Virus record (IMG/VR): IMGVR_UViG_2706794682_000006
Strand: one strand, 5' to 3'
From: a virus
Lineage: Duplodnaviria; Heunggongvirae; Uroviricota; Caudoviricetes
DNA length: 5,673 nucleotides
Under the pieces are notes generated by a model. The model had not been told where the DNA came from. It saw only the letters and a list, made by a program, of their open reading frames with translations, and made no database searches. Both the position numbers and the translations under genes were made by a program. Of the stretch, positions 2,441-5,673 are shown in pieces; the stretch's first letter is position 1; each line of letters begins with the position of its first letter.

Positions 2441-2968
2441 TCTGAACATCAGTCCACGCTGAGCGCGGGCTATCTTCATGCCTCGACGAACGTTCCCGGC
2501 AGCGATGATCTGAACGGGATTAACGTGAAATACCGTTATGAGTTTACGGACACACTGGGGCTGGTGACGTCATTCAGCTATGCAGGAGACAAGAATCGCC
2601 AGCTTACCCGTTACAGCGATACCCGCTGGCATGAAGATTCCGTGCGTAACCGCTGGTTCAGCGTGATGGCGGGGCCGTCTGTGCGCGTGAATGAATGGTT
2701 CAGCGCGTATGCGATGGCGGGTATGGCTTACAGCCGTGTGTCGACTTTCTCCGGGGATTATCTCCGCGTAACTGACAACAAGGGGAAAACGCACGACGTG
2801 CTGACCGGAAGTGATGACGGTCGCCACAGCAACACGTCTCTGGCGTGGGGAGCTGGCGTGCAGTTTAACCCGACCGAATCCGTGGCCATTGATATTGCTT
2901 ATGAAGGCTCCGGCAGTGGTGACTGGCGCACTGACGGTTTCATCGTGGGTGTCGGTTATAAATTCTGA
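2369..2968 (+). CDS. lom: Lom-like outer membrane protein (Ail/Lom/PagC/Rck/OmpX family 8-stranded beta-barrel); prophage 'moron' / lysogenic-conversion gene
   Basis: 199-aa ORF with a good RBS. The N-terminus [24 protein letters not shown] is a classic Sec signal peptide (basic n-region, hydrophobic core, A-x-A cleavage site). The protein ends in ...[24 protein letters not shown]; a terminal aromatic (Phe) beta-strand is the outer-membrane-barrel signature, and the motifs GINVKYRYE and SVMAGP match what I recall of lambda Lom and Ail-family proteins. It sits between J and stf as in lambda and is bracketed by terminators. Confidence 0.9.
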
Positions 2969-2994
2969 TTAGCCAGGTAACACAGTGTTATGAC

Positions 2995-3021
2995 AGCCCG
3001 CCGGTTCAGGCGGGCTTTTTT
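2995..3021 (+). terminator. Rho-independent terminator downstream of lom
   Basis: 8-bp stem AGCCCGCC (2995-3002) / GGCGGGCT (3009-3016) with loop GGTTCA, then a T run through 3021. It lies in the 64-nt lom-stf intergenic gap. Confidence 0.8.
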
Positions 3022-3032
3022 GTGGGGTGAAT

Positions 3033-5673
3033 ATGGCAGTAAAGATTTCAGGTGTACTGAAAGACGGCACAGGAAAACCGGTACAGAACTGCACAATCCA
3101 GCTGAAAGCAAAACGTAACAGCACCACGGTGGTGGTGAACACGCTGGCCTCAGAAAATCCGGATGAAGCCGGGCGTTACAGCATGGACGTTGAGTACGGG
3201 CAGTACAGCGTTATTCTGTTGGTGGAGGGATTCCCGCCGTCACATGCCGGGACCATCACCGTGTATGAAGATTCCCGACCCGGTACGCTGAATGATTTTC
3301 TCGGTGCCATGACGGAGGATGATGCCCGTCCGGAGGCTCTGCGCCGTTTTGAACTGATGGTGGAAGAGGTGGCGCGTAACGCGTCCGCGGTGGCACAGAA
3401 CACGGCAGCCGCGAAGAAGTCAGCCAGTGATGCCGGCACATCTGCCCGTGAGGCGGCAACCCATGCGACTGATGCTGCAGGCTCAGCGCGTGCAGCCAGC
3501 ACGTCAGCCGGACAGGCCGCGACTTCGGCTCAGGAGGCGTCTTCCAGCGCAGGAACGGCATCAACAAAGGCCACTGAAGCATCAAAAAGTGCTGCCGCTG
3601 CAGAGTCCTCAAAAAGCGCGGCGGCCACCAGTGCCGGTGCGGCGAAAACGTCAGAAACGAATGCTGCAGCGTCACAAAAATCAGCAGCCACTTCTGCATC
3701 CACTGCGACAACGAAAGCGTCAGAAGCCGCCACTTCAGCCAGAGATGCGGCGGCCTCCAAAGAGGCGGCAAAATCATCAGAAACGAACGCCTCCACAAGC
3801 GCCAGCAGTGCAGCCTCCTCGGCAACGGCGGCAGGAAATTCCGTGAAGGCGGCAAAAACGTCCGAGACGAATGCTAAGTCTTCTGAAACGGCAGCGGAAC
3901 AGAGCGCCTCAGCTGCGGCAGACTCTGAGACAGCAGCTGCATCATCGGCCCGTGAGGCGTCCATTAAGGCAGAGGAGGCAGCAGTCAGTGCCACCGCCGC
4001 CGGAAAATCGGCAGAAAGCGCCGCATCATCCGCTTCAACAGCCACAACGAAGGCTGGCGAAGCCACTGAACAGGCCAGCGCAGCAGCGAGGTCTGCTTCC
4101 GCAGCGAAGACATCCGAAACGAACGCGAAAGCGTCGGAAACAAGCGCAGAATCCTCAAAAACGGCTGCCGCATCGTCAGCCAGTTCGGCGGCGTCATCGG
4201 CATCATCGGCGTCTGCTTCAAAAGATGAGGCGACCAGACAAGCGTCAGCAGCGAAGAGCAGCGCCACGACGGCATCCACGAAGGCGACAGAGGCTGCTGG
4301 CAGTGCGACGGCGGCAGCTCAGAGCAAAAGTACGGCGGAATCCGCGGCAACGCGCGCCGAGACAGCAGCTAAACGGGCAGAGGATATTGCATCCGCCGTG
4401 GCGCTTGAGGATGCGAGCACGACGAAAAAGGGGATAGTACAGCTCAGCAGTGCGACCAACAGCACTTCCGAGTCACTGGCGGCAACGCCAAAGGCAGTAA
4501 AAGCAGCCTATGACAATGCAGAGAAACGTCTGCAGAAAGACCAGAACGGTGCTGATATCCCCGACAAGGGCCGCTTCCTGAATAACATTAATGTTTACAG
4601 CAAAGGTGAAGTGGATAAGAAAAAGGGGATGCGAAAATACACTTTCTCTGCTCCTGCAAATGCAGTAAGCGGTAAGTGGTATCCTATAGTCTTTCGCCGA
4701 TCTGGAGGCGGTACCGATGAATTAGCCTCACGAGTTGTGATAACTACTTATTCCTCAGCTGGCGGATACGCCATGAATAATTGTGAATTTAATGGGTTTG
4801 TTATGCCTGGCGGTTGGTCTGATCGCGGTTCATATGCGGCTGGTTTTTTCTCAATATATTCTACTGCTGAGCGAGCTATACACTCGATTATTTCAAGTGT
4901 GAAAGATGACGATTTGTGTAGTGTATTTTACGTTGAAGCCAGAGCATTTCCTATCAAGATATTTGCTGAGGAGGGCTTGAACGTAATTGTTCCAACTACT
5001 GACTATACCGTTGGTCAAGCCACCTATAAGTGGGGGGCCACAGATCCAGTAGCAGAAAGTACAAATACTCAAACCATTCTGGATTTTAAAAATGGACGTG
5101 GTTATTACTGCTCACATCAGTTTGTTTCAAGCCTTTCAGGAAATGCAGCAACAGCAACGAAATTAGCAAGTTCAATAAACATAGGTGGTGTATCCTTTGA
5201 TGGTTCAGCCGATATAGATTTGCCTGGTGTGAATACAAAAGGTAATCAAGACACTACCGGTAATGCAGCGACAGCGACCAAGTTGCAGACAGCATGTACT
5301 ATCAACGGCGTCTCGTTTGATGGTTCTAAAGATATTGAACTTAACCCACGGTCTATAGGCACGATCAACTCCACAACAATGTCTTTTAGTGGTGGTGCTG
5401 GATGGTTCAAGCTGGCAACGGTAACCATGCCGCAGGCGAGTTCTGTTGTTTCAATTACGTTGATTGGTGGGGCTGGATATAACGTCGGTTCACCTCAACA
5501 GGCAGGTATATCTGAACTTGTTTTGCGTGCAGGTAATGGTAATCCGAAGGGGATTACTGGTGCTTTATGGCAGCGCACATCGGCAGGGTTTACAAATTTT
5601 GCCTGGGTCAATACATCTGGTGATACTTACGATATTTACGTTGCAATCGGAAATTATGCGACTGGTGTAAATA
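3033..5673 (+). CDS. stf: Side tail fibre protein (Stf), N-terminal ~880 codons; 3'-partial (no stop before window end). Lambda-Stf-like N-terminal region joined to a divergent distal receptor-binding region
   Basis: ATG at 3033 is the first ATG after an in-frame TGA at 2991-2993 and is preceded by GGGG (3024-3027). Hand translation of frame 0 shows no stop through 5672. The N-terminus MAVKISGVLKDGTGKPVQNCTIQLKAKRNSTTVVVNT...GRYSMDVEYGQYSVIL...TITVYEDS matches my recollection of lambda Stf (orf-401) almost residue for residue, followed by a long Ala/Ser/Thr-rich region and ...KKGIVQLSSATNSTSESLAATPKAVK. The distal part carries two tail-fibre repeat units. It is absent from the ORF track only because that track needs a stop codon. 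Confidence 0.88.
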   Translation, partial: MAVKISGVLKDGTGKPVQNCTIQLKAKRNSTTVVVNTLASENPDEAGRYSMDVEYGQYSVILLVEGFPPSHAGTITVYEDSRPGTLNDFLGAMTEDDARPEALRRFELMVEEVARNASAVAQNTAAAKKSASDAGTSAREAATHATDAAGSARAASTSAGQAATSAQEASSSAGTASTKATEASKSAAAAESSKSAAATSAGAAKTSETNAAASQKSAATSASTATTKASEAATSARDAAASKEAAKSSETNASTSASSAASSATAAGNSVKAAKTSETNAKSSETAAEQSASAAADSETAAASSAREASIKAEEAAVSATAAGKSAESAASSASTATTKAGEATEQASAAARSASAAKTSETNAKASETSAESSKTAAASSASSAASSASSASASKDEATRQASAAKSSATTASTKATEAAGSATAAAQSKSTAESAATRAETAAKRAEDIASAVALEDASTTKKGIVQLSSATNSTSESLAATPKAVKAAYDNAEKRLQKDQNGADIPDKGRFLNNINVYSKGEVDKKKGMRKYTFSAPANAVSGKWYPIVFRRSGGGTDELASRVVITTYSSAGGYAMNNCEFNGFVMPGGWSDRGSYAAGFFSIYSTAERAIHSIISSVKDDDLCSVFYVEARAFPIKIFAEEGLNVIVPTTDYTVGQATYKWGATDPVAESTNTQTILDFKNGRGYYCSHQFVSSLSGNAATATKLASSINIGGVSFDGSADIDLPGVNTKGNQDTTGNAATATKLQTACTINGVSFDGSKDIELNPRSIGTINSTTMSFSGGAGWFKLATVTMPQASSVVSITLIGGAGYNVGSPQQAGISELVLRAGNGNPKGITGALWQRTSAGFTNFAWVNTSGDTYDIYVAIGNYATGVN
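3400..4430 (+). repeat. Low-complexity Ala/Ser/Thr/Lys/Glu-rich coding repeat region inside stf, with imperfect internal DNA repeats
   Basis: Recurrent peptide motifs K-T-S-E-T-N-A (nt 3649-3669, 3855-3875, 4108-4128; related S-S-E-T-N-A at 3775-3792) and S-A-S-T-A-T-T-K-A-(S/G)-E-A (3693-3728 and 4029-4064). The codons are dominated by GCN/TCN/ACN, which creates long stop-free runs in other frames and on the antisense strand. Confidence 0.8.
5139..5342 (+). repeat. Two copies of a phage tail-fibre repeat motif within stf (protein-level tandem repeat, units 40 codons apart)
   Basis: Unit 1 at 5139-5222 is GNAATATKLASSINIGGVSFDGSADIDL; unit 2 at 5259-5342 is GNAATATKLQTACTINGVSFDGSKDIEL. Both are in the stf frame. 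The motif GNAATA(T)KL...(R/C)TINGV.FDGS..I resembles what I recall as the 'phage tail fibre repeat' seen in T4 gp34-type and many enterobacterial prophage tail fibres. Codon usage differs between the two units, so the duplication is not recent. Confidence 0.75.

Follow-up and report, generated by a model that had tools for sequence, protein, structure and literature searches.

A probable internal low-GC cassette in the side tail fiber gene of a lambda-like Escherichia coli prophage, with close relatives in P1-like plasmids and 9g-like phages

The 3′ part of a 5,673-nt stretch of viral DNA (IMG/VR record IMGVR_UViG_2706794682_000006, Caudoviricetes; the whole stretch is called the window here) carries the start of stf, a side tail fiber gene in which a lambdoid proximal part gives way, within a conserved adapter, to an AT-rich sequence. 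The window belongs to a lambda-like Escherichia coli prophage; its nearest full-length matches are E. coli prophages at 95 to 97% identity, and no identical record was found; an exact-string scan of genome contigs for a window-specific 39-mer was likewise negative. The stf open reading frame (ORF) lies on the plus strand at 3033 to 5673, downstream of J and lom, begins with an ATG at 3033, and comprises 880 codons that remain open past the 3′ end of the window; homologous phage records label this third ORF as stf. Alignments to related loci indicate that the AT-rich stretch is probably an internal cassette of about 1.2 kb, running from 4593 to about 5771 to 5800, and not the receptor-binding end of the fiber. 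The gene is built of modules: a lambdoid anchor, an Ala/Ser-rich shaft, the adapter, the AT-rich cassette and then, going by relatives, a Collar/needle tip followed by tfa. Adjacent segments of stf have their nearest relatives in unrelated phage groups, and the junctions lie in a short motif common to those groups.

The base composition of stf shifts abruptly near the left edge of the cassette. Measured in 300-nt windows, G+C content was about 0.60 to 0.62 across 3200 to 4500 and 0.40 to 0.45 from 4500 on. The maximum-likelihood change point over all ORF positions was nt 4575, where G+C fell from 0.592 to 0.432 (likelihood ratio, LR, of 66 versus a maximum of 18.1 in 300 codon shuffles). This contrast is partly inflated, because the amino acid content of the Ala/Ser/Thr-rich shaft raises G+C at codon position 2 to about 0.8. 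At third codon positions (GC3), however, the change point was 4632, with a drop from 0.548 to 0.32 (LR of 44.7; maximum of 17.9 in 1000 permutations), a compositional discontinuity independent of amino acid content. By segment, GC3 was 0.65 in J, 0.62 in lom, 0.62 in the N-terminal domain of stf, 0.51 in the Ala/Ser-rich part, and 0.58 in the adapter, compared to 0.31, 0.28, and 0.36 in the three distal pieces described below (module A, repeats, and module B, respectively). A preliminary description of this DNA had reported a sharp drop in base composition from hand counts of G+C on single 60-nt lines (33/60, 33/60, 24/60, and 22/60). Those counts were exact, the sliding-window, change-point, and GC3 analyses all display the drop (the latter two at a level far beyond shuffled controls), and both the protein break and the composition break lie inside the interval then proposed (4480 to 4640), which covers the exchange zone well.

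The two sides of the break also differ in their relatives. Positions 3033 to 4500 matched 235 phage records, essentially all lambdoid, at identities of up to 96%, whereas positions 4600 to 5673 matched only 20 and no lambdoid among them: the Nonagvirus HdSG1 and P2-like and P1-like phages, the last with the invertible C-segments of P1 and P7 among them. With different best-matching phage groups for the two halves, the modular exchange that had been suggested from the letters alone holds up. The contrary view, that nothing was exchanged and that the composition shift marks the change from shaft to globular sequence while lambda diverged in place, draws on the inflation at codon position 2; nevertheless, it is scarcely credible. 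GC3, too, falls from 0.55 to 0.32 at the LR given above; the distal part is 96 to 100% identical in nucleotide sequence to a Nonagvirus and to a P1-like plasmid, neither of which has anything in common with the proximal part; and stf genes range from 861 to 1133 amino acids (aa) among loci that encode an identical Lom.

Three parts of the cassette, all on the plus strand, can be delimited directly in the alignments. The first (4593 to 5132) consists of a short linker (VYSKGEVDKKKGMR) and module A, a predicted beta-sandwich of about 165 aa; its left edge was set where the gap-free match to the Sv′ ORF of a P1-like plasmid begins, and most lambdoid relatives diverge at this edge, their last matching base being 4591. 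HdSG1 is 96 to 100% identical over 4533 to 4932. The second part (5133 to 5340) holds two GNAATATKL...(I/N)GGVSFDGS repeats, with motifs at 5139 to 5165 and 5259 to 5285. Over these repeats the P1-like plasmid pS51_2 is 99 to 100% identical and HdSG1 only 72 to 79%, and similarity to the P1-like JL22 and to P1 begins at 5223 to 5238. The third part, module B (RSIGTINS...; 5341 to 5673), is cut by the window end and in relatives stops at the window equivalent of about 5771 to 5800. Its identity is 94 to 97% to JL22, 84 to 99% to L011, and about 80% to pS51_2 after 5393. A hard boundary between HdSG1-like and JL22-like sequence at about 5238 was considered as a second junction and rejected, since pS51_2 is continuous across it at 99 to 100%; it is a boundary for some comparators only. 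In L011, module A is absent and the adapter is joined straight to module B.

What follows the cassette was read from two E. coli prophages, L001 and L019. L001, which is 97% identical to the window, has an stf of 1152 aa that runs about 270 codons past the window end and is followed by tfa and then by host genes. L019 (GCA_949765835.1) is similar and has 0 mismatches to window positions 4779 to 5673 (895 nt). In both prophages, the low-GC stretch stops about 100 to 130 nt past the window end, and lambda-like sequence returns at the window equivalent of about 5794 (87 to 88% identity to lambda and 94 to 96% to other lambdoids); a short variable stretch follows, and beyond it the 3′ end of stf and tfa are 94% identical to lambda. 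The C-terminal region in the relatives' fibers contains a Collar domain (PF07484) and a needle tip of the T4 gp37 type (PDB 2XGF; E = 4e-84), as in lambda Stf. The stf gene of the window presumably continues as that of L019 does, in which case its receptor-binding tip and chaperone are likely to be of the lambda type.

These relatives bear on the earlier proposal that the exchanged piece is a swapped-in, receptor-binding distal end that sets host range. That proposal accounts for the different relatives and lower G+C of the distal part, and nothing lambda-like follows within the 5,673 nt. In L001 and L019, however, the cassette is internal, with the Collar, the gp37-type tip, and a lambda-like tfa coming after it, and modules A and B are likewise internal in many fibers with different tips. 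We therefore regard a receptor-binding role for the AT-rich part as the fiber's end as very improbable. The stf gene of L019 is split inside module A by an IS21-family insertion element of about 2.6 kb (IstB plus a Mu-transposase-like gene; L019 positions 6409 to 9048), which lies at the window equivalent of 4779 to 4785 and is flanked by a 7-bp target duplication, AATTGTG.

The lambdoid part and the cassette meet in a conserved adapter (4407 to 4592, plus strand). It comprises a Phage_fiber_2 repeat at about 4416 to 4538 (...KKGIVQLSSATNSTSE.LAATPKAVK.AYD), followed by ...LQKDQNGADIPDKGRFLNNIN, and is common to P2 gpH, Mu S, P1 S, and Nonagvirus fibers. The repeat (PF03406; E = 5e-22) was detected only when the adapter was scanned alone; a whole-protein Pfam scan missed it. 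Within the adapter, AATPKAVK occupies residues 483 to 490 (nt 4479 to 4502), and QNGADIP…RFLNNIN follows the repeat. The adapter is homologous to residues 109 to 172 of Mu S (PDB 5YVQ and 8JU3) and matches 25 PHROG tail fiber families. All of the breaks described below fall in the conserved stretch from 4407 to 4640, which encodes ...KKGIVQLSSATNSTSESLAATPKAVKAAYDNAEKRLQKDQNGADIPDKGRFLNNINVYSKGEVDKKKGMR.

Relatives break away from the window at different points along this stretch. By blastn tiling, lambda matched 2841 to 3940 and 4246 to 4501, its nucleotide match ending just after ...AATPKAVK (residue 490), and the last matching base was 4514 for PhiR42_1, 4591 for 2H10, and 4634 for PhiR30_1. 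Among nonlambdoids, HdSG1 matched 4531 to 5293, a P2-like gpH matched 4408 to 5215, and the stf gene of JL22 matched 5238 to 5673. Together with the prophage loci, these end points form a ladder: 4501 (lambda), 4513 to 4514 (PhiR42_1 and L011), 4567 (L017), 4591 (2H10 and 8 of the 10 loci with an identical Lom), and 4634 (PhiR30_1). The same end-point classes recur across complete E. coli genomes. The protein strings quoted in the preliminary description are present, and likeness to lambda does end near 4500 as it had said, but the single breakpoint that it placed there is true against lambda only, and a ladder of exchange points from 4501 to 4634 takes its place. Likewise, its statement that the protein "diverges completely" beyond this point applies to lambda itself but not to fibers of the 2H10/StfR type, whose alignment with the window stays colinear across the adapter and on through a homologue of module A (54% over 350 columns).

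Informative sites inside the adapter alternate in their affinity. They are PhiR42_1-like at 4380 to 4486 and 2H10-like at 4476 to 4549 (with 1 mismatch). A run of mismatches to 2H10 begins at 4550, those to HdSG1 stop at 4553, and from 4554 on the sequence is the same as in HdSG1. The informative-site display thus places the window's own switch from lambdoid to cassette sequence at 4542 to 4558 (plus strand), in the codons for Q-N-G-A-D-I. Of 5426 complete E. coli genomes, 120 contain the full-length probe for this junction and 25 the probe for the second junction, which argues against an assembly artifact. The exact allele is real, and it is carried by a minority of E. coli genomes. The motif ...Q(K/N)(D/N)(Q/R)NGADIP.K..F..N(I/L)... 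occurs twice in tandem in HdSG1 (locus L002, about 3790 to 3990) and in Mu S (residues 150 to 203), where the first copy spans gix; the joint motif is thus a repeat unit in its own right, which could make out-of-register exchange possible.

We propose that the cassette was brought in, and later repatched, by recombination in short sequences common to the fiber genes of unrelated phages, with the adapter (4501 to 4634) serving as the left exchange zone and the start of the Collar tip as the right boundary; chimeras that still fold would survive. Homologous exchange of this kind is the mechanism that we consider reasonably likely. It is favored by the ladder of breaks, the alternating sites in the adapter (as exchange within common homology should leave them), the donor matches that overlap at the junctions, and the coincidence of breaks with domain boundaries. 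Experimentally, lambda has been shown to recombine with Rac and with Qin across stf-tfa by homologous recombination (PMC3945230). The recombination would be of the relaxed, Red/RecA type, and on this account the cassette would have moved into the lambdoid gene.

A different origin of the junction, at an Sc/Sv crossover site under the action of a Din-family DNA invertase (Cin, Gin, or Pin type), also has points in its favor. The boundary of the Mu G-segment (S nt 509) maps by homology to 4588/4589, close to 4592, from which most lambdoid relatives diverge, and of the 12 positions in 4592 to 4603 (TGTTTACAGCAA), 10 agree with the right half of gix. In pS51_2, moreover, the invertible segment whose Sv′ part contains the cassette has both cixL and cixR intact, and a Pin-type invertase follows tfa in several lambdoid relatives. 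PMC3945230 cites Sandmeier 1994 for the view that exchange by Din invertases probably drives the transfer of stf between unrelated phages. Nonetheless, the window holds no match to the Din-site consensus at up to 3 mismatches and no left half-site, no inverted repeat pairs the junction with the region after tfa, and in L001 and L019 host genes, not an invertase, come after tfa. The cix site of pS51_2 lies about 200 nt upstream of the left edge of the cassette and not at that edge. At least 5 different break points exist, and informative sites alternate inside the adapter. Finally, a domain boundary coincides with 4592 (.../VYSK..., which follows a different upstream context in P1-like Sv′), and the recurrence of this boundary can be attributed to selection for chimeras that still fold. 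We judge it unlikely that an invertase made the junction.

Several points nevertheless weigh against homologous exchange of an internal cassette. The window ends within module B, so that the lambda-type tip is seen in relatives only, one of which has no mismatch to the final 895 nt. Mu's gix crossover has its homologous position no more than about 3 nt from the commonest break, 4591/4592, and in P1-like plasmids an invertase controls the segment that contains the cassette, such that site-specific recombination is possible in the deeper history.

The affinities of the cassette point to a donor pool outside the lambdoids. The 98-kb P1-like plasmid pS51_2 has, in order, a Cin-like recombinase gene, cixL (identical to that of P1), a 609-aa Sv′-type ORF, U′, inverted U and S, and cixR. 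Positions 4593 to 5673 aligned without gaps to the Sv′ ORF (locus L022, 279 to 1359), with 93.7% identity overall, 99 to 100% over 4693 to 5392, and about 80% thereafter; beyond 5392, JL22 and L011 are closer to the window than pS51_2 is. Relatives of the repeat and module B region occur at 242 places in E. coli, 218 of them on plasmids. G+C content was 0.449 at the HdSG1 locus, 0.451 at the JL22 locus, and 0.446 (GC3, 0.37) in the pS51_2 Sv′ ORF. These values of about 45% agree with the lower-GC source that had been postulated for the distal part, and the donor pool was likely the fiber genes of P1-like phage-plasmids (Sv′) and 9g-like virulent phages. In HdSG1, the fiber (L002, 2377 to 6094) is annotated as two overlapping coding sequences (00041 and 00042) whose overlap falls in the module A homologue, and tfa is also annotated as frameshifted; this split may reflect frameshifts or sequencing errors in the record.

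Module A (about 4641 to 5132) recurs as one unit in 129 cluster representatives in a full HMMER scan, at locations from residue 35 to about residue 2000 in proteins of up to 2682 aa. By tblastn it was found in 261 phage records, including Nonagvirus, P1, lambdoids, T5-like and rV5-like phages, and gp37 proteins of Aeromonas T4-like phages. The proteins that carry cassette homologues vary at both ends: their N termini are of the P2 type (DUF3751) or phage_tail_N, and their tips are of the Collar/gp37 type, gp53-like, Gly-rich, gp37_C, or S74. Module A had no match in Pfam or NCBIfam, and NCBIfam was also negative for the full fiber and the other cassette pieces. An AlphaFold2 model of module A alone, built from a trimmed, diverse alignment, was all beta (predicted local distance difference test, pLDDT, 88.6; predicted template modeling score, pTM, 0.86). 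In contrast, a model of the whole 350-aa cassette built with close homologues reached a pLDDT of 54 and was excluded from fold matching. Searched with Foldseek, the module A model had no solved relative, and the predicted viral structures that it matched were tail fibers in every case. Module A, and possibly module B, might belong to an uncharacterized beta-sandwich family of the mid-fiber that provides a secondary, lectin-like binding site on the shaft, a proposal that we hold to be doubtful; what points to binding is a weak resemblance in fold to accessory beta-sandwich domains. If the modules did bind, the cassette would add to host range together with the gp37-type tip, and it would be a unit that passes between prophages of the lambdoid group, invertible segments on P1-like plasmids, and virulent phages of the 9g-like, T5-like, and rV5-like kinds.

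Among known systems, one of the closest counterparts is the Stf of ur-lambda (774 aa; orf-401 plus orf-314 in lambda PaPa) with its Tfa chaperone. The window has the same J-lom-stf-tfa locus (tfa by way of relatives), the same anchor, shaft, and Phage_fiber_2 repeat, and its relatives have the same Collar/gp37-type tip and tfa at 87 to 94% nucleotide identity. The difference lies in the middle: where lambda Stf has residues 391 to 529, approximately (...MDETNRKAPLDSP...VLEYLGAGENS), the window has a cassette, about 400 aa long, that holds modules A and B. The lambda middle segment (...GRDILAKNSVADVLEYLGAGENS) is itself homologous to the sequence that closes the P1-like constant part at cix (...GRDILAKTSTLAVIQYLGL, followed there by RELG). 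Fibers of the StfR/2H10 type (2H10, mEp332, ev099, and PhiR30_1; stfR in many genomes) are 94 to 100% identical to the window up to 4591 to 4634 and colinear after the adapter, with a module A homologue (54% over 350 aligned columns), the GNA.TATKL repeat, and, at 76% identity, a tip of the Collar/gp37 type. They differ in that module A is only about 54 to 57% identical at the protein level, the other middle domains are not the same, and a Pin-type invertase follows several of them but neither L001 nor L019. Relative to these fibers, the aligned sequences identify the cassette as a diverged allele of the same architecture and not as foreign sequence.

The invertible segments of P1 (C-segment) and Mu (G-segment), with their Sv/Sv′ parts, offer a further comparison. 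The cassette is whole in the Sv′ of pS51_2 and partial in JL22 and P1, and the adapter resembles Mu S 109 to 172, which spans gix. However, the fiber's N-terminal part is lambdoid and not P1 Sc. Sv′/U′ sets are present in pS51_2, P1, and Mu, whereas L001 and L019, the close relatives of the window, have neither an adjacent invertase nor an inverted alternative (Sv′/U′) segment, and the window has no cix or gix and no pair of inverted 26-bp sites. The side tail fiber of HdSG1 (Nonagvirus, 9g-like) is of the phage_tail_N type with the NGADIP adapter and module A and is identical to the window from 4554, staying at 96 to 100% to about 4932. In contrast to the prophage, HdSG1 is a virulent siphovirus of 63 kb; upstream of 4531 it bears no relation to the window, and its identity falls to 72 to 81% after about 5030.

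Functional chimeras of lambda Stf have been engineered by fusing P2 at R393 and K1F, K5, and KL106 at S528 (PMC11338833), and these two fusion points enclose the lambda segment for which the natural cassette is substituted. The R of AATPKAVKVVMDETNR is R393, which lies 3 residues past the end of AATPKAVK (lambda residue 390), and S528 is the S of GAGENS, 2 residues before matching resumes at about residue 530. The engineered chimeras replace everything downstream, including the tip, to retarget the particle, whereas here only the middle is replaced and, in the relatives, the lambda-type tip is kept. The window and its relatives mark out precisely where a lambda-type side tail fiber has been spliced in nature, evidently with function kept: at adapter residues of about 483 to 520 and at the start of the Collar tip. 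These points coincide with the R393 and S528 fusion points used to retarget lambda-based delivery particles. The window and its relatives also indicate that the middle of the fiber is exchangeable independently of the tip, place near-identical fiber DNA (99 to 100% over 700 nt) in a chromosomal lambdoid prophage and in the invertible segment of a P1-like plasmid, and bring to light in module A a widespread fiber domain that has neither a family model nor a solved structure.

Tail fiber mosaicism is a textbook phenomenon. Haggard-Ljungquist in 1992 and Sandmeier in 1994 are said to have described horizontally exchanged mosaic tail fiber genes with junctions in short conserved motifs. The stf gene of the window is a clear instance of this known mosaicism, a new allele and not a new kind of system, and no concept is changed by it. 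Descriptions of the phenomenon cited in PMC3945230 are Montag 1989, Haggard-Ljungquist 1992, and Sandmeier 1992/1994. A paper on P2 pseudotyping offers no specifics on where junctions lie.

Upstream of the adapter, stf is lambdoid throughout. The N-terminal anchor is a phage_tail_N domain (PF08400; E = 1e-71) spanning residues 1 to 134 (3033 to 3434, plus strand), which is 98 to 100% identical to several lambdoid phages and prophages and 86 to 94% identical to lambda. It is followed by the shaft (3435 to 4406, plus strand), which is rich in Ala (37%), Ser (23%), and Thr (13%) and, by its composition, the identity table, and the lambda tiling, is lambdoid but patchy. In the per-100-nt identity table, the patch at 3933 to 4032 is 99% identical to PhiR42_1 and about 79% identical to other lambdoids, and about 300 nt (3941 to 4245) are missing from lambda. 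Alignment of the shaft thus points to length polymorphism and patchwise exchange here as well. Tandem Repeats Finder reported no arrays in 3300 to 5673; the Ala/Ser-rich part is therefore of low complexity and not a clean tandem repeat. Long ORFs in other frames overlap this part of the gene (3176 to 4437): 3530 to 4279 (minus strand, 249 aa), 3256 to 3855 (minus strand, 199 aa), and 3871 to 4437 (plus strand, 188 aa). Their translations are of low complexity, which suggests that they are by-products of biased composition and not genes.

The 5,673 nt hold three genes, namely the 3′ two-thirds of J, lom, and the start of stf, in the order of a lambdoid tail module, which the homologous loci share. 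The J gene is of the lambda type (22 to 2301; domains Ig_J, Phage_Tail_Tip, and Ig_GpJ_C), and lom is complete (2369 to 2968; Ail_Lom match, E = 1e-121). Strong terminator-like hairpins with 8-bp stems of 6 to 7 G-C pairs and a T run lie at 2320 to 2339, between J and lom, and at 2995 to 3016 (plus strand; 7 G-C pairs), between lom and stf, directly 5′ of the stf start codon, the latter outside the mosaic and of interest as context only; hairpins on both sides suggest that lom may be a separate transcription unit. Among the ten loci with an identical 199-aa Lom (L009 to L018), none of which is the source of the window, stf lengths were 861, 987, 1132, and 1133 aa, and a Pin-type invertase follows in some but not in others. 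The J gene is mosaic as well. Lambda, 2H10, and L001 match 1 to 1318 at about 93 to 96%; from about 1319 to 1487 none of the three matches, whereas PhiR42_1 is continuous there. Compared with lambda, J is only 76% identical over 1488 to 1851, and its C-terminal, receptor-binding part (1852 to 2301) is unmatched; PhiR42_1 is without the segment from 1923 to 2262. G+C content in the J region falls from about 0.62 to about 0.50 near nt 1000.

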